DNA of 64,000 nucleotides from NCBI RefSeq assembly GCF_003018115.1, contig NZ_CP027457.1, one strand, 5' to 3'. Positions 1,060 through 44,734 of the stretch are shown one piece after another; position 1 is the first letter of the stretch, and the number at the start of each line of letters is the position of its first letter. A program made the position numbers and the translations under genes. Under the pieces are notes generated by a model. That model did no database searches. It had not been told where the DNA came from and was given only the letters and a program-made list of their open reading frames with translations. Source of the stretch: Escherichia coli (GTDB taxonomy: Bacteria > Pseudomonadota > Gammaproteobacteria > Enterobacterales > Enterobacteriaceae).

Positions 1060-1086
1060 GCGCCATCGTTAGATGGCGCTTTTTAT
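1060..1086 (+). terminator. Rho-independent terminator downstream of ydcL
   Basis: Stem gcgccatc / gatggcgc with a 4-nt loop followed by TTTTTAT. Confidence 0.55.
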
Positions 1087-1575: not shown

Positions 1576-1582
1576 TTGACCT

Positions 1583-2791
1583 GTGAAACGATTACAGGCA
1601 TTTAAATTCCAGTTAAGACCAGGTGGTCAACAGAAGTGTGAAATGAGGCGCTTCGCAGGCGCATGTCGTTTCGTTTTCAATCGTGCTCTGGCACGTCAGA
1701 ATGAGAATCATGAGGCCGGTAATAAATACATCCCTTACGGGAAAATGGCTTCCTGGCTGGTTGAGTGGAAAAATGCCACTGAAACGCAATGGCTTAAAGA
1801 TTCTCCCTCACAGCCATTGCAACAGTCACTGAAAGACCTTGAGCGGGCTTACAAAAACTTCTTCCGGAAGCGGGCTGCTTTTCCCCGATTCAAAAAGCGG
1901 GGACAGAATGATGCATTCCGCTACCCGCAGGGCGTTAAGCTCGATCAGGAAAACAGCCGTATTTTTCTGCCGAAACTGGGCTGGATGCGCTACCGGAATA
2001 GCCGTCAGGTCACGGGTGTTGTGAAAAATGTCACTGTCAGCCAGTCCTGCGGTAAGTGGTACATCAGTATTCAGACAGAAAGTGAAGTATCAACTCCGGT
2101 TCACCCTTCAGCATCAATGATCGGGCTGGATGCTGGCGTGGCTAAACTCGCCACGCTGTCAGATGGCACAGTCTTTGAGCCTGTAAACAGTTTTCAGAAA
2201 AACCAGAAGACGCTGGCGAGACTTCAGCGACAGTTAAGCCGCAAGGTCAAATTCAGCAACAACTGGCAGAAGCAGAAACGCAAAATACAGCGACTGCATT
2301 CCTGTATCGCAAATATCCGCAGGGACTACCTTCACAAAGTCACAACGGCCGTCAGCAAAAACCACGCAATGATAGTCATTGAGGATTTGAAGGTCAGCAA
2401 CATGTCAAAGTCAGCAGCGGGTACGGTCAGCCAGCCGGGGCGCAATGTCCGGGCAAAATCAGGTTTAAACCGTTCGATACTGGATCAGGGCTGGTATGAA
2501 ATGCGCCGCCAGCTTGAGTACAAGCAGCTCTGGCGTGGCGGTCAGGTGCTTGCTGTTCCGCCAGCGTATACAAGCCAGCGTTGCGCGTACTGTGGTCATA
2601 CAGCGAAAGAGAACCGCCTGTCACAAAGTAAATTCAGATGCCATGTATGTGGATATACAGCGAACGCCGATGTAAATGGCGCTCGTAACATTTTAGCGGC
2701 GGGGCACGCCGTTCTTGCCTGTGGAGAGATGGTGCAGTCAGGCCGCCCGTTGAAGCAGGAACCCACCGAAATGATTCAGGCGACAGCCTGA
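1583..2791 (+). CDS. insQ: IS609 TnpB (OrfB, RuvC-like RNA-guided nuclease family)
   Basis: 402-aa ORF from a GTG start; N-terminal AFKFQLRP motif and C-terminal Cys-rich zinc finger (CAYCGH...CHVCGY). K-12 annotation would start at the internal Met at 1643 (382 aa). Confidence 0.8.
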
Positions 2792-2830
2792 ACGTAGCAG
2801 GGATCCACGTCCTTCAGGGCGTGGAGGATG

Positions 2831-25078: not shown

Positions 25079-25897
25079 AAGGATAAATGGCGTTCTCTGT
25101 ATTTATTCGCAATTATCTGTAGGACAAATATGGAGAGCTTGATGAGTCAGAGCTAAAACAGCAATTGATTAATAAACATGTTGATTTATTCAAGAAAATG
25201 GATGTATTTTAAATGTTGATTCTTAATATAACCTAATCAATAGATTATCAAGTGAGAGCTACACATTATTGGAGGGGCAGGGGAAAACACCATTTTGGGA
25301 ACAATGCATCAGGTACTCTTACCACTGAAGCAAGATCATCCGGCACCAGGTGGTGGTGCAGTGCTTTGGAAATGGTCCCCTCGGGGGAGTTGTCATTATT
25401 TTCTATGCTATTTGCTTATTATATTCATCAGGTGAATTTAATAAATTCCTAATTTGAAATATCCACTATTAAGCTAGTGTTTAACGACGTTAAGATGGCA
25501 ATGTGCAGATCATGTTATCAGGGTGGGGCGGTAGCGTATATTCCTTATACAAACCATCATTCATTTCAATGATTGTTATTGAATTATTTATTGTTGTGAA
25601 TAAAAAGACATTATGAATATTGGTTTGACTTTGCATATCAGGTTTTTTATTACTCGCTGTAATGTACGAGCCTGTCGTGAATAACGTCGAGAACCCATCC
25701 GTTGCGTTTGTGATTATTTTGTTGACTAAACAGACACCCGTTTCTCTGAAGTAAAATCCCAGACTAAATCATCACATAACCATGACATTTTTCTGATATT
25801 CCCCGGTAACGCCAGATGTCGACTCGCTTATCTCATCCGCCCGACATGTTGTACATGCAATATGTGCGGATTATTATTCATTTTCACGGAGGTTGCT

Positions 25898-28006
25898 ATG
25901 TCAACCGGATTACGTTTCACACTGGAAGTGGACGGCCTGCCACCGGACGCTTTTGCGGTGGTTTCCTTTCATCTCACCCAGTCACTCTCTTCACTCTTTT
26001 CCCTCGATCTCTCCCTGGTCAGCCAGCAGTTTCTCTCCCTTGAATTTGCGCAGGTGCTGGACAAAATGGCCTACCTGACAATATGGCAGGGTGATGATGT
26101 ACAGCGCCGGGTGAAAGGTGTGGTGACCTGGTTTGAACTGGGGGAGAACGACAAAAACCAGATGCTGTACAGCATGAAGGTGCACCCGCCGCTGTGGCGT
26201 GCCGGTCTGCGCCAGAACTTCCGTATCTTCCAGAACGAGGACATCAAAAGCATCCTCGGCACGATATTGCAGGAAAACGGGGTGACCGAGTGGAGTCCGC
26301 TGTTCAGTGAACCGCATCCTTCCCGTGAGTTTTGTGTCCAGTACGGTGAGACTGATTACGATTTCCTGTGCCGGATGGCGGCGGAGGAAGGCATCTTCTT
26401 TTATGAGGAGCATGCTTACAAAAGTACCGACCAGAGCCTGGTGCTGTGCGACACGGTCCGCCATCTGCCCGAATCTTTTGAAATCCCCTGGAACCCGAAC
26501 CCCCGTACCGAGGTGAGCACCCTCTGCATCAGCCAGTTTCGCTACAGCGCACAAATCCGCCCTTCTTCCGTGGTGACCAAAGACTACACCTTTAAACGCC
26601 CCGGCTGGGCAGGACGTTTTGATCAGGAAGGCCAGCACCAGGATTACCAGCGCACGCAGTATGAGGTGTATGACTACCCCGGACGTTTCAAGGGCGCCCA
26701 CGGGCAGAACTTTGCCCGCTGGCAGATGGAGGGCTGGCGAAACAATGCAGAAACCGCGCGGGGAATGAGTCGCTCGCCGGAGATATGGCCGGGACGGCGA
26801 ATTGTGCTGACGGGGCATCCGCAGGCGAACCTGAACCGGGAATGGCAGGTGGTGGCGAGCGATCTTCACGGCGAACAGCCGCAGGCGGTACCGGGACGCA
26901 GGGGTTCAGGCACCACGCTGGATAACCATTTTGCGGTAATACCGGCAGACCGGACATGGCGACCACAGCCGTTGCTGAAACCGCTGGTGGATGGCCCGCA
27001 GAGCGCCGTCGTGACGGGACCGGCAGGCGAGGAAATCTTCTGCGACGAACATGGTCGCGTGCGGGTGAAATTTAACTGGGACCGCTATAACCCGTCAAAC
27101 CAGGACAGTTCATGCTGGATCCGTGTGGCACAGGCGTGGGCAGGCACCGGCTTTGGCAACCTGGCGATACCGCGTGTGGGTCAGGAGGTGATTGTGGACT
27201 TCCTCAACGGCGATCCGGACCAGCCGATTATTATGGGGCGTACCTACCACCAGGAAAACCGCACACCCGGCAGCCTGCCGGGGACGAAGACGCAGATGAC
27301 CATTCGTTCGAAAACCTATAAGGGCAGCGGGTTTAATGAACTGAAGTTTGACGATGCGACAGGGAAAGAACAGGTCTACATCCACGCGCAGAAGAACATG
27401 AACACCGAGGTGCTGAATAACCGCACCACGGATGTGATAAACAACCATGCTGAGACCATTGGCAACAATCAGATGATTGCGGTTACCAACAATCAGATAC
27501 AGACGGTGGGCGTTAACCAGATAGAGACGGTGGGCAGTAACCAGATCATTAACGTGGGTTCTGTTCAGGTGGAAACGATTGGACTTGTTCGTGCGCTGAC
27601 CGTGGGCGTGGCGTACCAGACGACGGTAGGTGGCATTATGAACACTTCGGTGGCTCTGATGCAGTCCTCGCAGATCGGTTTGCATAAATCGTTGAGGGTC
27701 GGGCTGGGTTATGACGTCAAAGTCGGAAATAACGTTACCTTCACCGTTGGTAAAACGAAAAAGGATGATACCGGGCAGACCGCGATTTACTCCGCCGGTG
27801 AGCATCTGGAGCTCTGCTGTGGTAAGGCAAAGCTGGTGCTGACAAAGGACGGTCAAATTTTTCTCAACGGCACAAAAATTCATTTGCAGGGTAAGGAGCA
27901 GGTTAATGGTGACTCACTGTTGATTAACTGGAACTGTGCAGCCTCGAAATCCCCACCGAAGACCCCTGATGAAAAGCAGGATACGCCGGATATGAGAGAG
28001 TACTGA
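25898..28006 (+). CDS. vgrG: Type VI secretion spike protein VgrG (Rhs-element vgr gene)
   Basis: Start at ATG 25898 (MSTGLRFTLEVDG...) after GGAGG; gp27/gp5-like regions and C-terminal Val-Gly repeats (IQTVGVNQIETVGSNQIINVGSVQVETIG). Confidence 0.85.
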   Translation: MSTGLRFTLEVDGLPPDAFAVVSFHLTQSLSSLFSLDLSLVSQQFLSLEFAQVLDKMAYLTIWQGDDVQRRVKGVVTWFELGENDKNQMLYSMKVHPPLWRAGLRQNFRIFQNEDIKSILGTILQENGVTEWSPLFSEPHPSREFCVQYGETDYDFLCRMAAEEGIFFYEEHAYKSTDQSLVLCDTVRHLPESFEIPWNPNPRTEVSTLCISQFRYSAQIRPSSVVTKDYTFKRPGWAGRFDQEGQHQDYQRTQYEVYDYPGRFKGAHGQNFARWQMEGWRNNAETARGMSRSPEIWPGRRIVLTGHPQANLNREWQVVASDLHGEQPQAVPGRRGSGTTLDNHFAVIPADRTWRPQPLLKPLVDGPQSAVVTGPAGEEIFCDEHGRVRVKFNWDRYNPSNQDSSCWIRVAQAWAGTGFGNLAIPRVGQEVIVDFLNGDPDQPIIMGRTYHQENRTPGSLPGTKTQMTIRSKTYKGSGFNELKFDDATGKEQVYIHAQKNMNTEVLNNRTTDVINNHAETIGNNQMIAVTNNQIQTVGVNQIETVGSNQIINVGSVQVETIGLVRALTVGVAYQTTVGGIMNTSVALMQSSQIGLHKSLRVGLGYDVKVGNNVTFTVGKTKKDDTGQTAIYSAGEHLELCCGKAKLVLTKDGQIFLNGTKIHLQGKEQVNGDSLLINWNCAASKSPPKTPDEKQDTPDMREY

Positions 28007-28073
28007 TCCCGTACCTGTTCGATATTCATTAACAAACCAGCATTAAAAATAAACAGAAGAAGGAATTTGAATC

Positions 28074-31000
28074 ATGAGCGGAAAACCAGCGGCGCGTCAG
28101 GGAGATATGACTCAGTATGGCGGTCCCATTGTCCAGGGTTCGGCAGGTGTAAGAATTGGCGCGCCAACTGGCGTGGCGTGCTCGGTGTGTCCGGGCGGGA
28201 TGACCTCGGGCAACCCGGTGAACCCGCTGCTCGGTGCAAAAGTACAGCCCGGCGAGACGGACCTTGCGCTGCCCGGCCCGCTGCCGTTCATTCTCTCCCG
28301 CACCTACAGCAGCTACCGGACCCGGACGCCTGCACCGGTGGGCGTTTTCGGCCCCGGCTGGAAAGCGCCTTCTGATATCCGCTTACAGCTACGTGATGAC
28401 GGACTGATACTCAACGACAACGGCGGGCGGAGCATTCACTTTGAGCCGCTGCTGCCAGGGGAGGCGGTGTACAGCCGCAGCGAGTCCCTGTGGCTGGTGC
28501 GCGGTGGTAAGGCAGCACAGCCGGACGGCCATACGCTGGCACGGCTGTGGGCGTCGCTGCCGCCGGATATCCGGTTAAGCCCGCATCTTTACCTGGCGAC
28601 CAACAGCGCACAGGGGCCGTGGTGGATACTGGGGTGGTCTGAGCGGGTGCCGGGTGCTGAGGACGTACTGCCAGCGCCGCTGCCGCCGTACCGGGTGCTT
28701 ACCGGGATGGCGGACCGCTTCGGGCGGACGCTGACGTACCGGCGTGACGGACGGTGCCGGGCGTGAGTTCCGTCTGGTGCTGACCACACAGGCGCAGCGG
28801 GCGGAAGAGGCCCGGCAGCAGGCGGTCGTCGCCGGAGCAAAACGACCGGACATTCCTGATTCACTGCCGGAGAGCACAGAGTACGGCCCCGACAGGGGTA
28901 TCCGTCTTTCAGCGGTGTGGCTGATGCACGACCCGGCATACCCGGAGAATCTGCCCGGTGCGCCACTGGCGCGGTACACGTATACGGAAGCCGGTGAACT
29001 GCTGGCGGTATATGACCGCAGCAATACGCAGGTGCGTGCTTTCACGTATGACCCGCAGCACCCGGGCCGGATGGTGGCGCACCGTTACGCGGGAAGGCCG
29101 GAGATGCGCTACCGCTACGACGATACGGGGCGGGTGGTGGAGCAACTGAACCCGGCAGGGTTAAGCTACCGCTATCTTTATGAGCAGGACCGCATCACCG
29201 TCACCGACAGCCTGAACCGGCGTGAGGTGCTGCATACAGAAGGCGGGGCCGGGCTGAAGCGGGTGGTGAAAAAAGAACTGGCGGACGGCAGCGTCACGCG
29301 CAGCGGGTATGACCCGGTGGGGCGGCTTACGGCGCAGACGGACGCGGCGGGACGGCGGACAGAGTACGGTCTGAATGTGGTGTCAGTCGACATCACGGAT
29401 ATCACCACGCCGGACGGGCGGGAGACGAAATTTTACTATAACGACGGGAACCAGTTAACGGCAGTGGTGTACCCGGACGGGCTGGAGAGCAGCCGGGCAT
29501 ATGATGAGCTGGACAGGCTGGTAACGGAGACATCGCGCAGCGGGGAGACAGTACGCTACCGCTATGATGATGCGCACAGTGAATTACCGGCCACAACAAC
29601 AGATGCGACGGGCAGCACCCGGCAGATGACGTGGAGCCGCTACGGTCAGTTGCTGGCGTTCACCGACTGCTCGGGCTACCAGACCCGCTATGAATACGAC
29701 CGCTTCGGCCAGATGACGGCGGTCCACCGCGAGGAAGGCATCAGCCTTTACCGCCGCTATGACAACCGTGGCCGGTTAATCTCGGTGAAAGACGCACAGG
29801 GCCATGAAACGCGGTATGAATACAACGCCGCAGGCGACCTGACTGCCCTCATTACCCCGGACGGCAACCGGAGCGAGACACAGTACGATGCGTGGGGAAA
29901 GGCGGTCAGCACCACGCAGGGCGGGCTGACGCGCAGTATGGAATACGACCTTGCCGGACGCATCACCACGCTGACCAACGAGAACGGCAGCCGGAGTGAG
30001 TTTACCTACGATGCGCTTGACCGGCTGGTACAGCAGCGCGGCTTTGACGGGCGGACGCAACGTTACCACTATGACCTGACCGGAAAACTCACGCAGAGTG
30101 AAGATGAGGGGCTTGTCACCCTCTGGCACTACGACGAATCGGACCGCCTCACTCACCGCACGGTGAACGGCGAACCGGCAGAGCAGTGGCAGTATGATGG
30201 CCACGGCTGGCTGACAGAAATCAGCCACCTGAGCGAAGGCCATCAGGTGGCGGTGCATTACGGTTATGATGATAAGGGCCGCCTGGCCGGGGAGCGCCAG
30301 ACGGTGCATAACCCGGAGACGGGGGAACTGCTGTGGCAGCATGAGACAGAGCACGCATACAACGAACAGGGGCTGGCAAACCGCGTCACGCCGGACGGCC
30401 TGCCGCGGGTGGAGTGGCTGACCTACGGCAGCGGTTATCTTGCGGGGATGAAGCTGGGCGGGACACCTCTGGTCGAGTATACGCGGGACCGCCTGCACCG
30501 GGAAACTGCGCGCAGCTTTGGTAACGGAACGGGCAGTACAGCCGCATATGAACTGACCAGCACTTACACCCCCGCAGGCCGGTTACAGAGCCAGCACCTG
30601 AACAGCCTGATGTATGACCGTGACTACGTGTGGAATGACAACGGCGACCTGGTGCGCATCAGCGGCCCGCGACAGACGCGGGAATACGGCTACAGCGCCA
30701 CGGGCAGGCTGGAGAGCGTGCGCACCCTCGCACCGGACCTGGACATCCGCATCCCGTATGCCACCGACCCGGCGGGAAACCGGCTGCCGGACCCGGAGCT
30801 ACACCCGGACAGCACGCTCACGGCGTGGCCGGATAACCGCATCGCGGAGGATGCGCACTATGTTTACCACTATGATGAATACGGCAGGCTGACGGAGAAG
30901 ACGGACCGCATCCCGGCGGGTGTGATACGGACGGACGACGAGCGGACCCACCACTACCACTACGACAGCCAGCACCGTCTGGTGTTCTACACGCGGATAC

Positions 31001-32250
31001 AGCATGGCGAGCCGCAGGTGGAGAGCCGCTACCTCTGTGACCCGCTGGGACGGCGAATGGCGAAACGGGTATGGCGGCGGGAGCGTGACCTGACAGGATG
31101 GATGTCGCTGTCGCGTAAACCGGAGGTGACGTGGTATGGCTGGGACGGAGACAGGCTGACGACGGTACAGACAGACCAGACCCGTATCCAGACGGTCTAC
31201 CAGCCGGGGAGCTTCACGCCGCTCATCCGTATCGAGACAGAGAACGGCGAACGGGAGAAAATGCAGCGCCGCAGCCTAGCGGAGAAGTTACAGTCGGAAG
31301 GGAGTGAGGACGGTCACGGTGTGGTGTTCCCGGCTGAGCTGGTGAGGATGCTGGACAGGCTGGAGGAAGAAATCCGGGCAGGCCGCGTGAGCAGTGAAAG
31401 CCGGGCGTGGCTTGCGCAGTGCGGGCTGACGGTGGAGCAACTGGCCAGACAGGTGGAGCCGGAATACACACCGGCGCGAAAAGTTCATCTTTATCACTGC
31501 GACCACCGGGGCCTGCCGCTGGCGCTCATCAGCGAAGACGGCAATACGGCGTGGCGCGGGGAGTATGATGAATGGGGCAACCAGCTTAATGAGGAGAACC
31601 CGCATCATGTGTATCAGCCATACCGCCTGCCGGGGCAGCAGTATGATGAGGAGTCGGGGCTGTACTATAACCGCAACCGGTACTATGATCCGTTGCAGGG
31701 GAGGTATATTACCCAGGATCCGATTGGGCCAGTGGGGGGGTGGAATCCCTATAGTTATGTGCTTAATAATCCAGCCCAGTTTATTGACCCAACAGGTTTA
31801 ACTCAAGAGGACAATTGGACCTATGGTGAGGTAGGTAATAGCTGTGTTACGAGTCAACGCGATTTTACTCCCCCGCCCGGACTTGCGGATATGAAAGCCA
31901 GCATTGGCGCTGCCTGCTCAAGAAACAATGCTTCCAGAAACTGCCACCCCGTAGATGGTAGTAATGCTTCTGCACCATCGGATAAAGCCGCATGGGAAAA
32001 TATTCAAAATGCGACAAATGGTAAAGATTTATCTGGTGGTGGAAATATGTTTTGTGTAGGAAATGAGGACTGTGCGGTTGTTCATAGCTGTCGTGAAATA
32101 GTTAATGCTCGACACCCGGCAGGACGAGTGCGTGAACGTGTAACTCCGTTAACAACGTCAGGAACAGCAACGCTCAATGGAACAACAGTTTACTTTTATA
32201 ATGATCCCCGGAATGGTAATTGTCCTGCTCACGAATATATTCCTCAATAA
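28074..32250 (+). pseudogene. rhsE: PAAR-Rhs polymorphic toxin, copy 1, split by a frameshift near 28740-28766 (ORFs 28074..28766 and 28744..32250)
   Basis: N-terminal PAAR-like region, YD-repeat core, DPxGL boundary. Relative to copy 2 about 38 nt (encoding ...[12 protein letters not shown]...) is missing, shifting the frame. Symbol by K-12 position only. Confidence 0.7.
31801..32250 (+). other. Rhs copy 1 C-terminal variable toxin domain (CT1), function unknown
   Basis: About 149 aa following DPTGL at 31786..31800; drop in GC content; Cys-rich; no motif recognised. Confidence 0.6.
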
Positions 32251-32300
32251 AGAAAGGTGGCCAGACTAAGCTCTAGCCACATTTTTTGGAGATCCTTTTC

Positions 32301-32924
32301 ATGAAAAGGTTTTTTATAACATGTTGCGTTATGACATTATTTTTATTTGTTAAATGTAAAGCAGCGTGTGTAACTTCCTTATATGAGGTTCAGCAATCGC
32401 TCTTTACATACATTTATTTGATTAGACAAGACCCTGTTCATTTTGATTCATATATTAAGAATGTGCATAACGAATTAAAAATATTCCATGATATTGATAA
32501 AGCCATGAATATAGCCTCAGATATGGTCAAAATTATTGATATAAAGACCCGTTTATCATTTAATAATGATTTATATATATTACAAGGGGAGCGACAGTAT
32601 GCAATAGTTAAGAGTGAAGGGGAAAGTAGTCAATTAAAATCATCAGCATTTATCATATCTAATTACCCACCATTTAAAAACAAAGTTCTGTTAATTTTAT
32701 CCGCTACTAGTCCCGTTCAGTTGGTTATATTGTCTTTTGATCAATGTCTTAATGTGGAGGTGTTATTTGATTCAATGTCTCCAGTTTTCGCTAAGTATAG
32801 AGAAGATATTAGTGCAACATTACCATTATGGAAGGTTATTTTGACAAAAAATGATATAGAATTATATGAGTACCATAGAACAAATCCATACTCACTTAAC
32901 AAATTATTGAGCATGTCAAAATAA
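32301..32924 (+). CDS. Putative immunity protein for Rhs CT1 (signal peptide/lipoprotein-like)
   Basis: AT-rich ORF directly downstream of rhs; start at ATG 32301 (MKRFFITCCVMTLFLF...) after GGAG; hydrophobic N-terminus with Cys. Confidence 0.6.
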   Translation: MKRFFITCCVMTLFLFVKCKAACVTSLYEVQQSLFTYIYLIRQDPVHFDSYIKNVHNELKIFHDIDKAMNIASDMVKIIDIKTRLSFNNDLYILQGERQYAIVKSEGESSQLKSSAFIISNYPPFKNKVLLILSATSPVQLVILSFDQCLNVEVLFDSMSPVFAKYREDISATLPLWKVILTKNDIELYEYHRTNPYSLNKLLSMSK

Positions 32925-33121
32925 CGGTCAAGTATTCAACGTTGTAATATTATTCCTTTTGCTGAGTGTCTCGAACGGCTAAAGTTGACGTAAAATGCCA
33001 CGTTTTGTGGGCAAACCGAATCGGTTAAAAAGCATGGTCCGGGAAAAGCTAAACATCAGCGCTATCGGTGCCAAATGTGCAGCAGGCCTTTCCAGCCTGA
33101 TTACCAGGGCAGGGCGGGATC

Positions 33122-34410
33122 AGGGAAAGATCATCAGAAGTTCACTTTTTGTACTAAATAATTTGCATTTTATATTTAAAAATTGAGATATTCCTCATTA
33201 CCTGAAGCTGTTTTTTATTGCTTATACATGATCAAATACTCCTTACATAATTAAGGAGAACAAAATGGAACTTAAAAAATTGATGGAACATATTTCTATT
33301 ATCCCTGATTACAGACAAGCCTGGAAAGTGGAACATAAATTATCGGATATTCTACTGTTGACTATTTGTGCCGTTATTTCTGGTGCAGAAAGCTGGGAAG
33401 ATATAGAGGATTTTGGTGAAACACATCTCGATTTTTTGAAGCAATATGGTGATTTTGAAAATGGTATTCCTGTTCACGATACCATTGCCAGAGTTGTATC
33501 CTGTATCAGTCCTGCAAAATTTCACGAGTGCTTTATTAACTGGATGCGTGACTGCCATTCTTCAGATGATAAAGACGTCATTGCAATTGATGGAAAAACG
33601 CTCCGGCACTCTTATGACAAGAGTCGCCGCAGGGGAGCGATTCATGTCATTAGTGCGTTCTCAACAATGCACAGTCTGGTCATCGGACAGATCAGGACGG
33701 ATGAGAAATCTAATGAGATTACAGCTATCCCAGAACTTCTTAACATGCTGGATATTAAAGGAAAAATCATCACAACTGATGCGATGGGTTGCCAGAAAGA
33801 TATTGCAGAGAAGATACAAAAACAGGGAGGTGATTATTTATTCGCGGTAAAAGGAAACCAGGGGCGGCTAAATAAAGCCTTTGAGGAAAAATTTCCGCTG
33901 AAAGAATTAAATAATCCAGAGAATGACAGTTACGCAATTAGTGAAAAGAGTCACGGCAGAGAAGAAATCCGTCTTCATATTGTTTGCGATGTCCCTGATG
34001 AACTTATTGATTTCACGTTTGAATGGAAAGGGCTAAAGAAATTATGCGTGGCAGTCTCCTTTCGGTCCATAATAGCAGAACAAAAGAAAGAGCCAGAAAT
34101 GACGGTCAGATATTATATCAGTTCTGTTGATTTAACCGCAGAGAAGTTCGCCACAGCAATCCGAAACCACTGGCACGTGGAGAATAAGCTGCACTGGCGT
34201 CTGGACGTGGTAATGAATGAAGACGACTGCAAAATAAGAAGAGGAAATGCAGCAGAATTATTTTCAGGGATACGGCACATCGCTATTAATATTTTGACTA
34301 ATGATAAGGTATTCAAGGCAGGGTTAAGACGTAAGATGCGAAAAGCAGCCATGGACAGAAACTATCTGGCGTCAGTCCTTGCGGGGAGCGGGCTTTCGTA
34401 ATCTTGCCCT
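33122..34410 (+). mobile_element. H-repeat (H-rpt, ISAs1-family) element, copy 1
   Basis: About 1.29 kb unit bounded by imperfect inverted repeats AGGGAAAGAT ... ATCTTGCCCT; three near-identical copies in the window. Confidence 0.8.
33265..34401 (+). CDS. ISAs1-family transposase (H repeat-associated protein), copy 1
   Basis: 378-aa [31 protein letters not shown]...; DDE-type transposase family. Confidence 0.85.
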
Positions 34411-35114
34411 GGGGCAACCTGCTTAATGAGGAGAACCCACATCACCTGTATCAGCCATACCGCCTGCCGGGGCAGCAGCATGATGAGGAGTCAGGGCTTT
34501 ATTATAACCGTCACCGGTACTATGACCCGCTACAGGGGAGGTATATCACCCAGGATCCAATCGGGCTAAGAGGTGAATGGAATCTGTATAAATATCCATT
34601 AAACCCTGTTCGGTTTATAGATTCTTTGGGTTTAAAATTCCATGTTAACGGTGATCCAAGTGATTTTAATCAGGCTGTTGAGTATTTAAAACAAGATTCA
34701 CGAATGAAAGAAGCTATAGATTTTTTATCAAGCTCTGAAGAAACCATAAAGATAGAGTATATTGATGAAACCGACGTTAGATTTGACCTGGATAAAATGA
34801 CTATATATTGGAATAGTAAGGCGGCTTTATTTTGTTCAACTGATTTAAAATCGAAATCACAATCACCTGCATTAGGTTTGGGGCATGAGTTTGCTCATGC
34901 GCACTTATATCTTATTGATAAGGATGGTTATATGGGGCTTGTGAGACGTGCGGATGAACAATATAAAAATAAAGAAGAGGCGAGAGTTATCACTTTAATT
35001 GAACAGCATGCGGCGAAAACTTTAGGTGAGTGTACCAGAACAGCATATAATGGAGTGTATTATCGTGTGAATACACCAACGCAGACGGCAACAATAAATG
35101 GCACGCCAGAATAG
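34404..35114 (+). CDS. Orphan Rhs C-terminal fragment with HExxH (zincin-like metallopeptidase) toxin domain (orphan CT-a)
   Basis: Begins at the H-rpt right end with the rhs core 3' end ([18 protein letters not shown]...DPIGL...[13 protein letters not shown]), then a divergent domain containing [10 protein letters not shown]; probably lacks its own start codon. Confidence 0.65.
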
Positions 35115-35575
35115 TGAGATTTTTCATGATGAAATATTTGATGGCTTTATTGTCTCTATTTTCTGCTTCGGTATTGGGGATGGGGCGAGTGAATGATTTA
35201 TGTGGAATAGATAGTGTGAAAACGATAGAAATAATTAATCTTCCAGCATATGTTACCACCTTAACCCCGCTTAGCAAGGAAGGTCTCAAGAGAATATACA
35301 AACATAAAGTGGTGGTGAATGGGGTTAGCGATTTTTATGCTGGTGAGATAATTGATCTATTGCAAATGAAGTATTTCAGGAAGGAGGAGGATAACGATAT
35401 AAGATGGGGGGTTAACATTGTTTCGAATAAAAATAATAAATGTGAAATTTATTTTGATGGTTTTGGTGAATGTGGAAGCGTGAATGGCATTAATGTATGT
35501 TTTGAAAAAAATGAAATGATATATTGGATTAAAAAAGAAATCCCTTTTCTGTCGCAAGAAATAGATGGGCTTTAA
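35114..35575 (+). CDS. Putative secreted immunity protein for orphan CT-a
   Basis: ORF overlapping the toxin stop; likely start at ATG about 35126 (MMKYLMALLSLFSASVLG..., signal peptide); AT-rich. Confidence 0.6.
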   Translation: MRFFMMKYLMALLSLFSASVLGMGRVNDLCGIDSVKTIEIINLPAYVTTLTPLSKEGLKRIYKHKVVVNGVSDFYAGEIIDLLQMKYFRKEEDNDIRWGVNIVSNKNNKCEIYFDGFGECGSVNGINVCFEKNEMIYWIKKEIPFLSQEIDGL

Positions 35576-35651
35576 ATGGTAGGGCAATATTCAAAGACAG
35601 TATAGGTAACTATTTGTATGGACATGTAAGGTAAAAGAAAAGGAATAAACC

Positions 35652-38600
35652 ATGAGCGGAAAACCGGCGGCGCGGCAGGGCGACATGACCCGCAAGGGAC
35701 TGGATATTGTGCAGGGTTCAGCGGGTGTGCTGATAGGTGCGCCGACGGGAGTGGCCTGTTCGGTGTGTCCGGGAGGGATTACCTATGCTAACCCGGTGAA
35801 CCCGGTGCTGGGTGCGAAGGTGCTGCCGGGCGAGACGGACCTTGCGCTGCCCTGCCCGCTGCCGTTTATTCTTTTCCGCGCCTACAGCAGCTACCGGACC
35901 AGAACACCCGCGCCGGTGGGGGTGTTTGGTCCCGGCTGGAAAGCGCCCTTCGATATCCGCTTACAGATACGCGATGAAGGCCTGATACTCAACGACAGCG
36001 GCGGCAGGAGCATTCACTTTGAGCCGCTGTTTCCCGGCGAGATAAGCTACAGCCGCAGCGAGTCACTCTGGCTGGCGCGGGGCGGAGTAGCGGCGCAGCA
36101 CAGTTCGCAGCCGCTAAGCGCGCTCTGGCAGGTGCTGCCGGAAGATGTTCGCCTGAGTCCGCATGTGTACCTGGCGACAAACAGCCTTCAGGGGCCGTGG
36201 TGGATACTCAGCTGGCCGGAGCGGGTGCCGGGGGCGGACGAGGTGCTGCCGCCGGAGCCGCCCGCATACCGGGTGCTGACGGGCGTGGTGGACGGCTTCG
36301 GGCGGACGCTGGCCTTTCACCGGGCAGCGGAGGGTGACGTGGCGGGCGCGGTGACGGGGGTGACGGACGGCGCGGGCCGCCGTTTTCACCTGGTGCTGAC
36401 CACACAGGCGCAGCGGGCGGAAGAGGCCCGTAAACCGCACACCGCTTCGTTATCTTCCCCTGACAGTCCCCGCCCTCTCTCAGCTCCTTCCTTCCCCGAC
36501 ACGCTGCCCGCCGGTACAGAGTACGGTGCCGATAACGGTATCCGGCTGGAGGCGGTATGGCTGACACACGACCCGGCATACCCGGATGAACAGCCGACTG
36601 CGCCGCTGGCGCGCTACACGTACACGGCCGGTGGTGAACTGCGGGCGGTGTATGACCGCAGCGGGACGCAGGTGCGCGGGTTTACTTATGATGCGGAGCA
36701 CGCCGGGCGGATGGTGGCGCACCATTATGCGGGTAGGCCGGAGAGCCGCTACCGGTATGATGATACCGGTCGGGTGACGGAGCAGGTCAACCCGGAGGGG
36801 CTGGACTACCGCTTTGAGTACGGAGAGAGCCGGGTAATCATCACGGACAGCCTGAACCGGCGGGAGGTGCTGTACACGGAAGGCGAGGGTGGCCTGAAGC
36901 GGGTGGTGAAGAAGGAGCATGCCGACGGGAGCATCACCCGCAGCGAGTATGATGAGGCGGGGAGGCTGAAGGCGCAGACGGATGCGGCGGGGCGGCGGAC
37001 GGAGTACCGGCTGCATATGGCGTCTGGAAAGCTGACTTCAGTGGTACTGCCGGACGGCAGGACGGTACGGTATGGTTACAACAACCAGTTGCAACTGACG
37101 TCAGTGACATATCCGGATGGTTTACGCAGCAGCCGGAAATATGACCGTCAGGGCAGGCTGGCGGAAGAGACCTCGCGCAACGGTAACATTACGCGCTGGT
37201 TTTATGATTCTTCCCGCAGTGGCCTGCCCTGTGCGGTGGAAGACGGAACCGGGGTGAGGCGGAGAATAACGCGAAACCGGTACGGTCAGCTTCAGGCGTT
37301 TACGGACTGCTCGGGGTACACGACGCGGTATGAGTATGACCGGTACGGTCAACAAATCGCCGTTCACCGGGAAGAAGGCATCAGCACTTACAGCAGTTAT
37401 AACCCGCGCGGTCAACTGGTCAGTCAGAGGGATGCGCAGGGGCGTGAAACCCGTTATGAGTACAGCGCCGCAGGAGACCTGACAGCAACGGTATCACCGG
37501 ACGGTAAACGCAGCACCATCGCATATGATAAACGCGGGCGTCCGGTGAGTGTGACGGAAGGCGGTCTGACGCGCAGCATGGGGTATGACGCTGCCGGGCG
37601 CATCACCGTGCTGACCAACGAGAACGGCAGCCAGTCCACGTTCCGGTATGACCCGGTTGACAGGCTGACTGAACAGCGCGGTTTTGACGGCCGGACGCAA
37701 CGTTACCACTATGACCTGACCGGAAAACTCACACAGAGTGAAGACGAGGGGCTTATCACCCTCTGGCACTACGATGCGTCGGACCGCATCACGCACCGGA
37801 CGGTGAACGGCGACCCGGCAGAGCAGTGGCAGTATGATGAGCACGGGTGGTTAACCACCCTCAGCCATACCAGTGAAGGCCACCGCGTGTCGGTCCACTA
37901 CGGCTATGACGATAAAGGCCGCCTGACCAGTGAGCGCCAGACGGTGGAGAACCCGGAGACGGAGGAACTGCTGTGGCAGCATGAGACAGAGCACGCATAC
38001 AACGAGCAGGGGCTGGCAAACCGCGTCACGCCGGACAGCCTGCCGCCGGTGGAGTGGCTGACGTATGGCAGCGGCTATCTGGCGGGCATGAAGCTGGGCG
38101 GGACGCCGCTGCTGGAGTTCACGCGCGACCGCCTGCACCGTGAGACGGTGCGCAGCTTCGGCAGCAGGGCAGGCAGTAATGCCGCATATGAACTGACCAG
38201 CACATACACCCCCGCAGGCCAGTTACAGAGTCAGCACCTGAACAGCCTGGTATATGACCGTGACTACGGGTGGAATGACAACGGCGACCTGGTGCGCATC
38301 AGCGGCCCGCGACAGACGCGGGAATACGGCTACAGTGCCACGGGCAGGCTGGAGAGCGTGCGCACCCTCGCACCGGACCTGGACATCCGCATCCCGTATG
38401 CCACGGACCCGGCGGGCAACCGGCTGCCGGACCCGGAGCTGCACCCGGACAGTACCCTCACAGTGTGGCCGGATAACCGCATCGCGAAGGATGCGCACTA
38501 TGTTTACCACTACGATGAATACGGCAGACTGACGGAGAAGACGGACCGCATCCCGGCGGGTGTGATACGGACGGACGACGAGCGGACCCATCACTACCAT

Positions 38601-39845
38601 TACGACAGCCTGCACCGCCTGGTCCATTACATCCGTATCCAATATGAGGAGCCACTGGTGGAGAGCCGCTACCTCTATGATCCGCTGGGCCGCCGGACGG
38701 GTAAACGGGTGTGGCGGCGGGAGCGTGACCTGACGGGGTGGATGTCGCTGTCGCGTAAACCGGAGATGACATGGTACGGCTGGGACGGAGACCGCCTGAC
38801 GACGGTACAGACAGACACCACGCGAATCCAGACGGTCTACCTGCCGGGGAGCTTCACGCCGCTCATCCGCATCGAAACGGAGAACGGCGAACGGGAGAAA
38901 GCGCAGCGTCGCAGTCTGGCGGAGAAGTTACAGTCGGAAGGGAGTGAGGACGGTCACGGTGTGGTGTTCCCGCCTGAACTGGTGATGATGCTGGACAGGC
39001 TGGAGGGAGAGATACGGGCAGACCGCGTGAGCCGTGAAAGTCGCCAGTGGCTGGCGCAGTGCGGACTGACGGTGGAGCAACTGGCCAGACAGGTGGAGCC
39101 GGAATACACACCGGCGCGAAAAGTTCATCTCTATCACTGCGACCACCGTGGCCTGCCGCTGGCGCTCATCAGCGAAGACGGCAATATAGCGTGGAACGCG
39201 GAGTATGATGAGTGGGGCAACATGCTGAACGAGGAGAACCCGCATCACCTGTATCAGCCATACCGCCTTCCGGGTCAGCAGTACGATGAGGAGTCGGGGC
39301 TGTACTATAACCGGAACCGGTACTATGATCCGTTGCAGGGGAGGTATATCACCCAGGACCCGATAGGGCTGATGGGGGGATGGAACCCTTACCTTTATCC
39401 GTTAAATCCTGTCACAAATACTGACCCTCAGGGGTTAGAAGCGATTCTTCCTGGTCCGTTCCCCTTCCCAATTCCATTGCCAAAAAGTCCTGTACAGCAG
39501 GAAGCAGATGCAAATGCAGCAAAAACATTGACAAAATGGTGGAAAAACTTTGGAGATGCCATTAATAATCCGCCACCTCCTGGTAATTGTTCTAATGATT
39601 ATTATGAACATCTGAAAAATCAAAAAGAAGCTATTTGCAACCAAAAAAGAAAGTGTTACCCAACCGATAGTTGTGAAACTATACTTCAGAAAGGTGTGTA
39701 TGGTCTTGCTTGTGTATCAGCAAGGAATAATATTATGAATCAATGTTTTAATGGAGGTGATTTACGGCATCAGCTTGAAAGAGAAACGGTCAGGGGAACT
39801 ATGATGTCATGTACTACATTGGCTGTAATAAAAGGATGTTTATAA
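35652..39845 (+). CDS. Intact PAAR-Rhs polymorphic toxin, copy 2 (1397 aa)
   Basis: AAGGA Shine-Dalgarno; N-terminal PAAR-like region (CSVCPGG), YD repeats, conserved ...PxxxxDPxGL boundary (DPQGL at 39423..39437), variable C-terminus. Confidence 0.9.
39438..39845 (+). other. Rhs copy 2 C-terminal toxin domain (CT2), Cys-rich, function unknown
   Basis: About 135 aa after DPQGL; Pro-rich linker then Cys-rich segment (CSNDYYEHL...[14 protein letters not shown]...CVSARNN...C); AT-rich. Confidence 0.6.
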
Positions 39846-40370
39846 ATGGGAAAAGACGAGATCATAGATTATATTCAGAAAACGTTTTCTGAATATCCAG
39901 ATTATTTGAAAAATGGGGTCGTTGATGAAGACAACATTGCATATTGCCATGACGCTATAAACCTTTTTTCTGGAAAGAGTTGGATTGAATTAATGGCCAG
40001 TGATCTTTACCATTCTGAAGATGCTGTCATGTGTCTCACTAAACCAGCATTCTCATATTATATTGCAGCCTATTTAAAACTTTTTATTGAAAATTATTAC
40101 GAAGCTGATGCTTTAGTGGATACTATTTTAAATATGCTCACTCCTCCTGTTAGGAATGGTATCCCCAGCACTACATGGATAGCAAAAAATCTTGATTGCT
40201 TTAGTCGTAATAAAAGGGTGGCTATTTCTTTTACATTCCAATATTTATGTAATGAATATAATGATCCAAATACTGAAAAGGCGTTAAATATATATTGGGG
40301 ACAGTATCTGAATGAATCATTGCTTATTAAAAATGTACAGAACTCTAAAAATAAATGTAAATCACAGTAA
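39846..40370 (+). CDS. Putative cytoplasmic immunity protein for Rhs CT2
   Basis: 174-aa ORF whose ATG overlaps the rhs stop (TAAATG); no signal peptide; AT-rich. Confidence 0.65.
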   Translation: MGKDEIIDYIQKTFSEYPDYLKNGVVDEDNIAYCHDAINLFSGKSWIELMASDLYHSEDAVMCLTKPAFSYYIAAYLKLFIENYYEADALVDTILNMLTPPVRNGIPSTTWIAKNLDCFSRNKRVAISFTFQYLCNEYNDPNTEKALNIYWGQYLNESLLIKNVQNSKNKCKSQ

Positions 40371-40374
40371 GACA

Positions 40375-40575
40375 GAATCAAGCAGAAATCGTGGGCGTGG
40401 TTCGCACCCTGACGGAGGGTGTAGCGTGTACTAGATCACAGTGAGCGACATCAAAGCTTGGTCACGTTCTGGCATTACGATGAAGCCGACCGCCTGACGC
40501 ACCGTACCGTGAATGATGAAGATGCCGAGTGCTGGCAGTACAACGAACGGGGCTAGCTGACGGAAAAAGACGAGC
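40375..40575 (+). repeat. Degenerate vgrG-like and rhs-core-like sequence relics
   Basis: 40380..40440 translates to ...EIVGVVRTLTEGVA... (VgrG VG-repeat-like); 40455..40570 translates to [32 protein letters not shown]-stop (Rhs core-like, compare 30115..30230). Confidence 0.55.
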
Positions 40576-40582
40576 AGCGCAT

Positions 40583-41870
40583 AGGGAAAGATCATCAGAA
40601 GTTCACTTTTTGTACTAAATAATTCGCATTTTATGTTTAAAAATTGAGATATTCCTCATTACCTGAAGCTGTTTTTATTGCTTATACATGATCAAATACT
40701 CCTTACATAATTAAGGAGAACAAAATGGAACTTAAAAAACTGATGAAACATATTTCTATTATCCCCGATTACAGACAAGCCAGGAAAGTAGAACATAAAT
40801 TGTCAGATATTCTACTGTTGACTATTTGTGCCGTTATTTCTGGTGCAGAAGGCTGGGAAGATATAGAGGATTTTGGGGAAACACATCTCGATTTTTTGAA
40901 GCAATATGGTGATTTTGAAAATGGCATTCCTGTTCACGATACCATTGCCAGAGTTGTATCCTGTATCAGTCCTGCAAAATTTCACGAGTGCTTTATTAAC
41001 TGGATGCGTGACTGCCATTCTTCAGATGATAAAGACTTCATTGCAATTGATGGAAAAACGCTCCGGCACTCTTATGACAAGAGTCGCCGCAGGGGAGCGA
41101 TTCATGTCATTAGTGCGTTCTCAACAATGCACAGTCTGGTCATCGGACAGATCAAGACGGATGAGAAATCTAATGAGATTACAGCTATCCCAGAACTTCT
41201 TAACATGCTGGATATTAAAGGAAAAATCATCACAACTGATGTGATGGGTTGCCAGAAAGATATTGCAGAGAAGATACAAAAACAGGGAGGTGATTATTTA
41301 TTCGCGGTAAAAGGAAACCAGGGGCGGCTAAATAAAGCCTTTGAGGAAAAATTTCCGCTGAAAGAATTAAATAATCCAGAGCATGACAGTTACGCAATCA
41401 GTGAAAAGAGTCACAGCAGAGAAGAAATCCGTCTTCATATTGTTTGCGATGTCCCTGATGAACTTATTGATTTCACGTTTGAATGGAAAGAGCTGAAGAA
41501 ATTATGCGTGGCAGTCTCCTTTCGGTCAATAATAGCAGAACAAAAGAAAGAGCCAGAAATGACGGTCAGATATTATATCAGTTCTGCTGATTTAACCGCA
41601 GGGAAGTTCGCCACAGCAATCCGAAGCCACTGGCACGTGGAGAATAAGCTGCACTGGCGTCTGGACGTGGTAATGAATGAAGACGACTGCAAAATAAGAA
41701 GAGGAAATGCAGCAGAATTATTTTCAGGGATACGGCACATTGCTATTAATATTTTGACGAATGATAAGGTATTCAAGGCAGGGTTAAGACGTAAGATGCG
41801 AAAAGCAGCCATGGACAGAAACTATCTGGCGTCAGTCCTTGTGGGGAGCGGGCTTTCGTAATCTTGCCCT
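40583..41870 (+). mobile_element. H-repeat (ISAs1-family) element, copy 2
   Basis: Same terminal sequences as copy 1. Confidence 0.8.
40725..41861 (+). CDS. ISAs1-family transposase (H repeat-associated protein), copy 2
   Basis: 378-aa ORF nearly identical to copy 1 with a few substitutions. Confidence 0.85.
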
Positions 41871-42486
41871 GCCAGGGCAGCAACACGATGAGGAGTCGGG
41901 GCTGTATTATAACCGTCACCGGTACTACGATCCGTTGCAGGGGTGGTATATCATCCAGGACCCGATTGGGCTGAAGGGGGGATGGAATCTGTACCAATAT
42001 CCGCTGAATCCAGTGCAACACGTTGATCCATTAGGGCTTAGTACTATGATAATAGGTAACGGCCCCGTTCCTGATAATCCTTTTGGGCATGCTGCGGCGG
42101 CAAATCGATATGGATTAATGAGTTCGGGAACTGGGGATGAGATGGGAGCCTCTGTCTCTGATTATTTTAAAAAGATGCAACCCCGCAGAGATACCTGGAT
42201 TTGGATAATAGATACAACAGATGAAGAAGAACAATGTATGATGAATAAGGCAATAGACCTTAATAAAAAACTAAAAACTATTAACCTCGGGCCTCTTCCT
42301 GTTTTAAATAATTGTTTTAGCCGAACGAACATGATTTTTGAGGCGTGCGGGTTTAACAACCCCTCTATGAATACAAATGCGCCTATAAGCCTACAAGTGC
42401 TCGGTGAGCTTTATGGATATCAAAGATATATTATGCCTAAAGGTCCTTTCACTGGATTCCCATTTGAATTTCAAGAGGTAAAGTAA
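41839..42486 (+). CDS. Orphan Rhs C-terminal fragment with unknown toxin domain (orphan CT-b)
   Basis: From the H-rpt right end: [35 protein letters not shown]...[13 protein letters not shown], then a divergent about 149-aa domain ([10 protein letters not shown]..., two Cys). Confidence 0.6.
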
Positions 42487-42885
42487 ATGGAAATGCTTGG
42501 GAAGATATTATTGATAATTATTTCCATGATAATTATATCTTGTGATTATTATAATGCTGGCATGGACTATCAAGATAATATAGCCCTCGAGCAAGTCGTA
42601 ACATGGGATTCTGATAATATATTCACACCTAATATCTTTGAACATAATGGAAGATGTTTTATGAAGAAAAATGAAACATGGATGTTATTAAATGGAGATG
42701 CAACACCAAACATTAGAACAATGAGCAATAAGAAAATAGAATGCCTGGAGAAGAGTGAAGTAGAATGGGCTAGTAGGGTTTGCGACAGTATCACAGACAA
42801 GGAAAGGGAAAATCTGAAGGCATTAATATGTAGCAAACCAGCTAAATCAGTTAATACAGGCAAAAGACCAGCGTTAGGATATTGA
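42487..42885 (+). CDS. Putative lipoprotein immunity protein for orphan CT-b
   Basis: 132-aa ORF abutting the toxin stop; N-terminal hydrophobic segment ending in a lipobox-like IISC. Confidence 0.6.
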   Translation: MEMLGKILLIIISMIIISCDYYNAGMDYQDNIALEQVVTWDSDNIFTPNIFEHNGRCFMKKNETWMLLNGDATPNIRTMSNKKIECLEKSEVEWASRVCDSITDKERENLKALICSKPAKSVNTGKRPALGY

Positions 42886-42917
42886 AACCGGCACTGCACT
42901 CTATCACTATTACAATC

Positions 42918-44205
42918 AGGGAAAGATCATCAGAAGTTCACTCTTTGTACTAAATAATTCGCATTTTATGTTTAAAAATTGAGATATTCCTCATTACCTG
43001 AAGCTGTTTTTATTGCTTATACATGATCAAATACTCCTTACATAATTAAGGAGAACAAAATGGAACTTAAAAAACTGATGGAACATATTTCTATTATCCC
43101 CGATTACAGACAAGCCTGGAAAGTAGAACATAAATTGTCAGATATTCTACTGTTGACTATTTGTGCCGTCATTTCTGGTGCAGAGGGTTGGGAAGATATA
43201 GAGGATTTTGGTGAAACACATCTCGATTTTTTGAAGCAATATGGTGATTTTGAAAATGGTATTCCTGTTCACGATACCATTGCCAGAGTTGTATCCTGTA
43301 TCAGTCCTGCAAAATTTCACGAGTGCTTTATTAACTGGATGCGTGACTGCCATTCTTCAGATGATAAAGACGTCATTGCAATTGATGGAAAAACGCTCCG
43401 GCACTCTTATGACAAGAGTCGCCGCAGGGGAGCGATTCATGTCATTAGTGCGTTCTCAACAATGCACAGTCTGGTCATCGGACAGATCAAGACGGATGAG
43501 AAATCTAATGAGATTACAGCTATCCCAGAACTTCTTAACATGCTGGATATTAAAGGAAAAATCATCACAACTGATGCGATGGGTTGCCAGAAAGATATTG
43601 CAGAGAAGATACAAAAACAGGGAGGTGATTATTTATTCGCGGTAAAAGGAAACCAGGGGCGGCTAAATAAAGCCTTTGAGGAAAAATTTCCGCTGAAAGA
43701 ATTAAATAATCCAGAGCATGACAGTTACGCAATCAGTGAAAAGAGTCACAGCAGAGAAGAAATCCGTCTTCATATTGTTTGCGATGTCCCTGATGAACTT
43801 ATTGATTTCACGTTTGAATGGAAAGGGCTGAAGAAATTATGCGTGGCAGTCTCCTTTCGGTCCATAATAGCAGAACAAAAGAAAGAGCCAAAAATGACGG
43901 TCAGATATTATATCAGTTCTGCTGATTTAACCGCAGAGAAGTTCGCCACAGCAATCCGAAACCACTGGCACGTGGAGAATAAGCTGCACTGGCGTCTGGA
44001 CGTGGTAGTGAATGAAGACGACTGCAAAATAAGAAGAGGAAATGCAGCAGAATTATTTTCAGGGATACGGCACATTGCTATTAATATTTTGACGAATGAT
44101 AAGGTATTCAAGGCAGGGTTAAGACGTAAGATGCGAAAAGCAGCCATGGACAGAAACTATCTGGCGTCAGTCCTTGCGGGGAGCGGGCTTTCGTAATCTT
44201 GCCCT
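42918..44205 (+). mobile_element. H-repeat (ISAs1-family) element, copy 3
   Basis: Same terminal sequences; right flank is the native pptA upstream region. Confidence 0.8.
43060..44196 (+). CDS. ydcC: ISAs1-family transposase (H repeat-associated protein), copy 3
   Basis: 378-aa ORF; symbol by position next to pptA as in K-12. Confidence 0.8.
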
Positions 44206-44506
44206 GGTTCGTTAAGTTTTTCTGCATTGCCGGTAATTTTGGCATCTTCTTTGTCCGTGGCTTGTTTCAGCGTCTATAATGGGCATTAATAAATTGGCAA
44301 GCCGGGAACTTGATGTTTTCTTAATGGCATGTTGGCGAAGAATATATTCTGCAAGTTAACGTTTTTGTTGGCGCTTTATTTAAAACGGGGTAGTACAAAT
44401 ATGTACAAATTCAAGTAGGCATTATTGTCGTAAAAAAGCATCACCGGACACATGACATTCACAACGTGTGTTAATTTTACTGACATCTTTCCAAAGGAGC
44501 ACAATC

Positions 44507-44734
44507 ATGCCGCACATAGACATTAAATGTTTTCCACGTGAACTGGACGAACAACAAAAAGCAGCACTTGCTGCAGATATTACCGACGTTATTATTCGCC
44601 ATCTGAACAGTAAAGACAGTTCGATAAGCATTGCTCTACAACAGATTCAACCAGAATCATGGCAAGCTATCTGGGACGCCGAAATCGCGCCCCAAATGGA
44701 GGCTTTGATAAAGAAACCTGGTTACAGCATGTAA
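44507..44734 (+). CDS. pptA: Tautomerase PptA (4-oxalocrotonate tautomerase family)
   Basis: 75-aa [16 protein letters not shown]... with catalytic Pro2; AAGGAG Shine-Dalgarno. Confidence 0.8.

Follow-up and report, generated by a model that had tools for sequence, protein, structure and literature searches.

The window analysed here, a stretch of 64,000 nucleotides (nt) of the Escherichia coli contig NZ_CP027457.1 (assembly GCF_003018115.1), carries the RhsE locus (yncH-vgrG-rhs…ydcC-pptA-nhoA) at 25.8–46.5 kb, and this locus contains three copies of H-rpt, an insertion sequence (IS), that are co-oriented with each other and with the rhs genes. Two of the copies directly precede short 5'-truncated rhs genes, here called orphans, which consist of a core tail and a tip and are followed by a small open reading frame (ORF), and each orphan is joined exactly to the terminal base of the element's right inverted repeat (IRR), which is intact. 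The reading that we favour, with a probability of roughly 0.6, is that deletions adjacent to the element ends have truncated downstream rhs genes into orphan cassettes, and that the H-rpt copies also recombine with each other. The locus is assigned from its flanks, which align to yncH and to pptA-yddH-nhoA-yddE in thousands of E. coli genomes, and the order within it is vgrG-rhs1-immunity ORF, H-rpt copy 1, orphan 1 (core tail, tip, immunity ORF), rhs2-immunity ORF, H-rpt copy 2, orphan 2 (core tail, the tip CT2, the immunity ORF imm2), H-rpt copy 3 and pptA.

Junctions and flanks of the H-rpt copies

Copy 1 is located at 33121–34411 (1291 bp), copy 2 at 40582–41871 and copy 3 at 42917–44206 (1290 bp each), all on the + strand, which confirms the three direct repeats of about 1.29 kb given in a preliminary description of this DNA. 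That description also placed rhs core sequence to the right of copies 1 and 2 and native sequence to the right of copy 3, which is correct, but the junction it assumed the first two to share does not exist. The IRR of copy 1 is joined to GGGCAACCTGCTTAATGAG, which corresponds to positions 31573 and 39213 in the rhs1 and rhs2 cores and to Rhs residue ~1189, and the complete IRR of copy 2 is joined to CCAGGGCAGCAAC (reading ...LPGQQ...), which corresponds to 31626 and 39266 and to residue ~1207. In alignment the two right junctions lie 53 nt apart, and they belong to two different orphan cassettes with different tips. The right end of copy 3 abuts non-rhs native DNA.

The three left flanks show no relationship to one another, nor to the core sequence expected just before the junctions. 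Copy 1 is preceded by an IS1-family remnant (~32966–33120, + strand, translation KHQRYRCQMCSRPFQ), whose insA fragment reaches exactly to the first base of H-rpt; a partial IS1 transposase is annotated at this place in the genome NZ_LR882990.1 (L001) and in strain D8 (L053). To the left of copy 2, at a distance of 11 nt, there is a diverged mid-core rhs remnant (~40455–40570, + strand, about 115 nt, core nt ~2040–2150) with an in-frame stop, which is ~70% identical to rhs1 30111–30220 in a local alignment and, judged by that alignment, would be what is left of another, more diverged rhs gene that was truncated at the element's left end. Copy 3 is preceded by the 3' side of an immunity ORF.

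No target-site duplication was found at 15 full-length copies from seven E. coli genomes, including the window, and from E. whittamii, nor at further copies or in any pairing of left and right ends within a locus, and none of the copies in the window has a 5' core half on its left side. No copy in the window is therefore a simple insertion into the core tail. The single insertion point postulated for all three copies has to be abandoned, since the junctions are at different sites, the left flanks are unrelated, the third copy is outside rhs and the duplications are missing. Missing duplications are expected if the flanks were rearranged after insertion. A composite transposon was also considered, and in the window and in strain DETEC-S792 (L055) the left flank of one copy never recurs as the right flank of another. 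A 17-nt left flank that seemed to be common to copy 2 and many genomes was a chance BLAST extension and was discarded.

The two rhs junctions of the window are rare, being present in 8 and 9 of 5426 genomes. A chimeric yncH-pptA query found no clean empty site among the sampled loci, and only 44 genomes bring the flanks close together; the sampling left out the IS1-bearing matches H171 and H201. Among the sampled loci with a short right flank there is one H-rpt-flush deletion, in strain R9 (L048), and the others are gene replacements or degraded remnants (L047, L049).

Orphan cassettes and nested truncations

Orphan 1 (34412–35114, + strand) comprises the core tail from Rhs residue ~1189 and a tip, aligns to both cores of the window and matches RHS_core at 1187–1261 and TIGR03696 at 3–76. 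Orphan 2 (41872–42486, + strand; ORF 41839–42486) comprises the tail from residue ~1207 and the tip CT2, and matches RHS_core at 1202–1261. The scores to TIGR03696 are 87 and 74 bits respectively, so both have a core profile followed by a non-homologous tip, and neither tip has a Pfam match. A small ORF follows each tip, at 35114–35575 for orphan 1 (related to 'dsORF-h1') and at 42487–42885 for orphan 2 (imm2), both on the + strand and taken from the ORF list; the toxicity of the tips and the immunity role of these ORFs are putative. The ORF of orphan 1 (34404–35114) starts with a TTG that lies in the IRR. That the reading frame of each orphan extends back into the IS end was rejected as an informative feature, since the IRR sequence by itself leaves two of three frames open. 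Tips related to that of orphan 1 are present on full-length rhs genes in ~1000 genomes, with ~86% identity, and imm2 lies within blocks that are 97.8–99.8% identical to other genomes. The protein WP_000425544.1 is annotated in the imm2-matching regions of UCPROB-002 (L002), D8, strain 789 (L054) and DETEC-S792, always beside CT2.

In E. coli genomes, rhs cores that lack their 5' part directly follow an intact IRR in the same orientation, and the core begins at six different positions, namely at Rhs residues ~392 (13KWH46), ~788 (D8), ~909 (LD91-1), ~1082 (DETEC-S792), ~1189 (the window, NZ_LR882990.1 and 90-3040) and ~1207 (the window and NZ_LR882990.1). These come from about 15 loci sampled by hand, with junctions chosen for a complete IRR.

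The CT2-imm2 tip shows such truncations as a series. It terminates a full-length rhs gene in UCPROB-002 and strain 789, and is cut at residue ~788 in D8, ~1082 in DETEC-S792 and ~1207 in the window, the DNA retained being 98.8–99.8% identical. In UCPROB-002 and strain 789 the final part of the full-length rhs gene, together with its immunity gene, is 98% identical to positions 41869–42916 of the window, and by this comparison orphan 2 corresponds to the resident rhsE tip, which other strains retain at full length. The truncated CT2 gene of D8 is located at the RhsE locus and that of DETEC-S792 at the yafV locus, with H-rpts on both sides, so that the CT2-imm2 cassette bounded by H-rpts occurs at two chromosomal loci, pptA and yafV.

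H-rpt is also found repeatedly upstream of intact rhs genes, which is the state that the deletion model needs before a truncation. The right ends of H-rpts in L006 (13510 onward), strain 789 (12557 onward) and L029 (152 onward) have the common flank GGTAGGAGGCCCTCC, which in the first two leads to a small hypothetical ORF, a DUF3969 ORF and a full-length rhs gene; the third is a contig of 1,250 nt. In Escherichia sp. MOD1-EC7003 (L035, ~3000–3063) an H-rpt right end abuts sequence resembling a vgrG C-terminal repeat, HVSLVEGKHSLVVKGDLAR, and from this likeness truncation flush with the IRR may also affect vgrG.

Deletions flush with the element ends in non-rhs DNA

At the right end of the ydcC copy, which is copy 3 of the window, the IRR is joined to 44207 in the window, NZ_LR882990.1 and UCPROB-002, to 44418 in K-12 and 90-3040, where 44207–44417 (210 bp) are gone, and to 44678, inside pptA, in R9, where 44207–44677 are gone and the whole Rhs element to the left of H-rpt is also lost. 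In a genome without H-rpt the sequence is retained from 44274 on, which indicates that the long right-flank allele is ancestral.

Loss is also seen from the left inverted repeat (IRL). D8 (positions 11896–12000 of L053) has the same IS1/H-rpt junction with 49 nt less of the IS1 remnant, the loss starting exactly at the IRL, and the window lacks 105 nt that are found before copy 3 in UCPROB-002, D8 and DETEC-S792. In RhsC of K-12 an H-rpt fragment (1–381), a full H-rpt and another fragment (25 onward) are joined exactly at both inverted repeats, and in other strains there are H-rpt pieces (12, 26 and 521 nt) ahead of full copies. A deletion of about 3 kb in D8 that removes copy 3 was considered as flush with the IRR, but it ends 2 nt inside the repeat and is not counted as evidence for the transposase; from the GCCxxGG similarity it was probably mediated by microhomology.

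Divergence and exchange among copies

The preliminary description had the copies differing by only a few residues, which is a loose estimate, since they differ by 18–28 nt (1.4–2.2%) and 7–13 amino acids. It took them to be recent or homogenised, which is not supported for this window. Copies at another locus in other strains are at least as close (16–17 differences), and copies 1 and 3 are as close or closer to the copies at the yafV type VI secretion system (T6SS) locus of other strains (16–18 differences). Six variants are common to copies 2 and 3 and not present in copy 1, and five of the six occur in no other sampled copy.

Divergence changes abruptly at the border of the element. Copy 1 differs at 33 sites from the copy in 90-3040 that has the identical junction, and the adjoining 1.19 kb are 99.9% identical; the H-rpts beside the near-identical CT2 cassettes of the three truncations differ by 2.6–3.9%. 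These jumps argue that H-rpt copies exchange sequence by homologous recombination. In DETEC-S792 (10001–14112 of L055, yafV locus) there are only 13 nt of difference between the two flanking H-rpts, against 38–59 nt between them and all others compared, a pattern that suggests local gene conversion or local duplication. The proposal that the direct repeats drive deletion or duplication of toxin modules is plausible and has indirect support from the CT2-imm2 cassette at a second locus and from the divergence jumps, but no simple H-rpt by H-rpt recombinant of the window arrangement was found.

In twelve copies taken together, 124 synonymous and 57 non-synonymous deviations from the consensus were counted, a ratio that points to purifying selection on the transposase ORF. 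Along with the nested end-flush deletions, this selection is an indirect sign of transposition.

Origin of the orphan cassettes

An H-rpt lying between two cassettes could be the starting point for an orphan. The transposase would join the IRR to a site within the rhs gene that follows, and this joining, by intramolecular transposition or adjacent deletion, would remove the 5' part of that gene and leave no target duplication. The truncation should have occurred once for junction 1 and separately for junction 2, and the same end process would nibble the neighbouring DNA at either end of the element in different strains. In addition the H-rpt copies would act as portable 1.3-kb homologies that move or delete H-rpt-bounded toxin/immunity cassettes. 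Adjacent deletion is proposed because the ends are intact, the variable loss starts exactly from them, target duplications are missing, the orientation is constant and the truncations are nested, and the CT2 cassette at two loci is the product expected from recombination through the 1.3-kb H-rpt homologies.

Several points weigh against this explanation. No transposition or deletion event has been observed directly, and we know of no experiment in which H-rpt transposed. At junction 2 the IRR overlaps with the core by 4 nt (CCTG) and at junction 1 by 2 nt (TG), so a microhomology deletion would yield the same sequence, and one deletion in D8 that ends 2 nt inside the IRR has that appearance. 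The differences of 2.6–3.9% between the H-rpts at the CT2 truncations call either for later exchange or for independent events, and the junctions were sampled by hand with a complete IRR as the selection. Independent insertion followed by recombination between H-rpts also gives identical products.

That last route is the strongest of the alternatives, and we consider it unlikely. Here H-rpts would have inserted independently and in the same orientation into rhs cores, and the 5' core half and the target duplication would have been lost later, either by recombination between H-rpts or when incoming DNA replaced the left side by using H-rpt as a homology arm. Its products cannot be distinguished from those of adjacent deletion, and it accounts for the mosaic, unrelated left flanks, for the diverged mid-core rhs remnant just left of copy 2 and for the divergence breaks at the H-rpt borders, which indicate that the copies recombine. 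However, it needs at least six independent insertions into rhs in a single orientation, three of them into the same CT2-bearing gene, and separate insertions at 44418 and 44678 beside an existing copy, and among the copies checked there is neither a copy with a target duplication nor a split core with both halves.

Less probable still is that the orphans arose by C-terminal displacement through circular tip-carrying intermediates that recombine homologously (Jackson et al. 2009), with H-rpt as a passive passenger at the segment ends. The model is described in PMC2935791, orphan 2 would be a resident tip that came to lie downstream of rhs material acquired later, and the orphan tips are indeed found on full-length genes elsewhere. 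It does not predict that orphan core fragments all start at the terminal base of an intact IRR, nor nested flush deletions in non-rhs DNA such as pptA and the IS1 remnant; moreover, H-rpt is not mentioned in PMC2935791, where the E. coli loci of clade I are generally without dissociated tips. Transposase-independent deletion by replication slippage or microhomology that ends at the H-rpt border by chance is very improbable, as the overlaps at the two window junctions and the D8 deletion with its GCCxxGG similarity are offset by the ydcC junctions of K-12 and R9, which lack microhomology and still end on the terminal G of the IRR, and several independent junctions on one nucleotide are not expected from random slippage.

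A wider claim we put forward only tentatively, namely that H-rpt/ISEc1 is enzymatically active, or was so recently, in E. coli in nature, and that most orphan rhs cassettes at RhsA-E type loci are its work. In that case units of core tail, tip and immunity ORF capped by H-rpt could be shuffled between Rhs loci such as those at pptA and yafV through the 1.3-kb homologies that bound them, and might be transcribed by read-through from the transposase promoter. The nested CT2 truncations and the flush deletions in non-rhs DNA are of modest interest as evidence from natural populations that an IS regarded as inactive does act on DNA. With them comes a testable route from full-length Rhs toxins to silent orphan cassettes, a step that the published displacement models do not cover.

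Relation to known systems

H-rpt inside the Rhs loci of E. coli K-12 is a textbook feature since the 1990s. The H-rpt (Hinc repeat) family of K-12, consisting of H-rptB (yhhI), H-rptE (ydcC) and H-rptC1-3, was reportedly described by Zhao et al. in 1993, in J Bacteriol 175:2799, and that description is said to have located it behind the core of RhsB, RhsC and RhsE, as an IS-like element for which transposition was not observed. The copies in the window resemble those of K-12 in having 1291 bp with an ORF of 1134 bp, in lying downstream of an rhs core in the same orientation, in their identity of 97.8–98.2% to ydcC and yhhI, in the ydcC position of copy 3 beside pptA and in the presence of several copies in one Rhs element, as in RhsC. 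They differ in that the RhsC copies are tandem and defective, whereas those of the window are full-length with intact ORFs and separated by toxin cassettes, two of them directly cap 5'-truncated rhs tails, and the right flank keeps the 210 bp lost from K-12. The element and its Rhs association are thus known since 1993 and the arrangement found here is strain-specific; the presence of H-rpt in the window adds little to this, and the nested end-flush deletions are a small step further that can be tested.

Members of the ISAs1 family (type element ISAs1 of Aeromonas salmonicida; ISfinder) are 1.2–1.5 kb long with CAGGG-type ends and produce target-site duplications of 8–10 bp. H-rpt agrees with this in its single DDE transposase, its size and its inverted repeats beginning with CAGGG (TAGGG in copy 2), but lacks the 8–10 bp duplication at every copy examined. 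Adjacent deletion by intramolecular transposition is classical for IS1, IS10 and IS903. The case described here is like these in the one intact IS end, the variable loss of neighbouring DNA, the missing target duplication and the nested alleles among strains, and unlike them in that the deletions are deduced from comparative sequence alone. We know of no demonstration of adjacent deletion for any ISAs1-family element.

Orphan rhs-CT/rhsI modules have been described (Poole et al. 2011, PMC3150448), as has C-terminal displacement (Jackson et al. 2009, PMC2935791), and the association of H-rpt with Rhs elements is echoed in PMC3032704. The cassettes of the window share with these modules the short 3' core fragment, the variable tip, the small ORF and the position downstream of a full-length rhs gene, but their 5' limit is the terminal base of an IS, and one tip shows a nested series of limits. 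Neither PMC3150448 nor PMC2935791 discusses H-rpt or deletions at IS ends, and no mechanistic treatment of H-rpt, ISEc1 or ISAs1 in connection with orphan tips was found in the literature.

The element and its transposase

The identification of the repeats as H-rpt of the ISAs1 type, made in the preliminary description, is borne out by a full-length match to NF033564 and by the ISEc1/ydcC annotation. Each copy contains an intact ORF for a transposase of 378 amino acids (1137 nt including the stop codon), at 33265–34401, 40725–41861 and 43060–44196, and all three match the ISAs1-family profile NF033564 over 314 of 314 positions with 406–415 bits (cut-off 70 bits); the domains PF13808 and PF01609 were confirmed in the transposase of copy 1. 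RefSeq annotates the matching genes as ISEc1, ydcC or yhhI in thousands of genomes, and a match to H-rpt is present in 5342 of the 5426 complete E. coli genomes at a median of 5 places per genome. H-rpt, of which the repeats are copies, is an IS of the ISAs1 family with the name ISEc1 in ISfinder, and its reported sizes are 1291 bp for the element and 1134 bp for the ORF (Zhao et al. 1993).

Terminal inverted repeats are present at the ends of the element; they are 11 bp long, CAGGGAAAGAT on the left and ATCTTGCCCTG on the right, as in copy 1, and match at 10 of 11 positions as reverse complements. Copy 2 begins with T instead of C. Megablast matches from thousands of genomes end exactly on the terminal bases of these repeats, and therefore CAGGG/TAGGG, earlier taken as the left flank, belongs to the element as the first five bases of its own IRL.

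A scan of species representatives found the H-rpt end also in other Escherichia, Citrobacter, Pseudocitrobacter and Aeromonadaceae, and in these genomes no rhs core is located within 600 nt to the right of it. The 22-nt right end GGGCTTTCGTAATCTTGCCCTG is present exactly, in several copies per genome, in the Aeromonadaceae Oceanisphaera and Oceanimonas (L010, L013–L016, L022–L028), where the remainder of the elements is only ~75% similar to H-rpt or cannot be aligned. An identical end on a diverged remainder indicates a strongly conserved, predicted transposase-binding end common to distant members of the ISAs1 family.

A promoter-like site is located upstream of each transposase gene, and the stretch from the transposase stop codon to the orphan showed no terminator-like site. 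Judged from these motifs, the orphan and its immunity ORF may be expressed by read-through from this site.

Some H-rpt copies are interrupted by a group II intron (ltrA), whose place in the element varies. In UCPROB-002 (L002, 9910–13169) it is close to the left end, between positions 14 and 26, and in E. coli 042 (L004, 3814–6994) it is near position 1087. D8 (L053, 15581–15837) retains only the first 14 nt of H-rpt and a piece of the intron.

Other genes of the locus

The genes described in this section are located on the + strand. The locus starts with vgrG (25862–28006), a T6SS spike gene with an ORF of 714 amino acids, and the aligned stretch is annotated as VgrG in UCPROB-002 and L005. 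It is followed by rhs1 (28074–32250), which has a full-length core that aligns to the rhs genes of UCPROB-002 and D8, and a tip. This gene, proximal to vgrG, is split into two overlapping ORFs (28074–28766 and 28744–32250, overlapping at 28744–28766) and is therefore probably a pseudogene. Its putative immunity ORF (32286–32924) encodes 212 amino acids without a Pfam match, and the matching ORF is annotated as hypothetical in NZ_LR882990.1 and D8.

Between orphan 1 and copy 2 lies rhs2 (35652–39845), intact and full-length with 1397 amino acids (NF041261, 2605 bits), whose tip (39300–39845) contains Ntox16 (PF15523) in the C-terminal 181 amino acids with E = 2.8e-12. The putative immunity ORF of rhs2 (39846–40370) has a weak match to DUF6714 below the cut-off, and apart from this sub-threshold match Pfam gave nothing significant for the other three rhs tips and all putative immunity ORFs. 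The native right flank with pptA (44507–44734) extends from 44207 to 44734, as defined by comparison with other E. coli.

The closest complete genome is NZ_LR882990.1, from an enterotoxigenic E. coli (ETEC) isolate, which has the same layout with 98.9% identity. Strains of O169:H41 are 99.8–100% identical to sub-regions of the window, and this identity places the window strain close to ETEC O169:H41. In NZ_LR882990.1 (5297–9120 of L001) a deletion of ~2.5 kb, corresponding to 26609–29130 of the window, fuses a truncated vgrG to a truncated rhs1.

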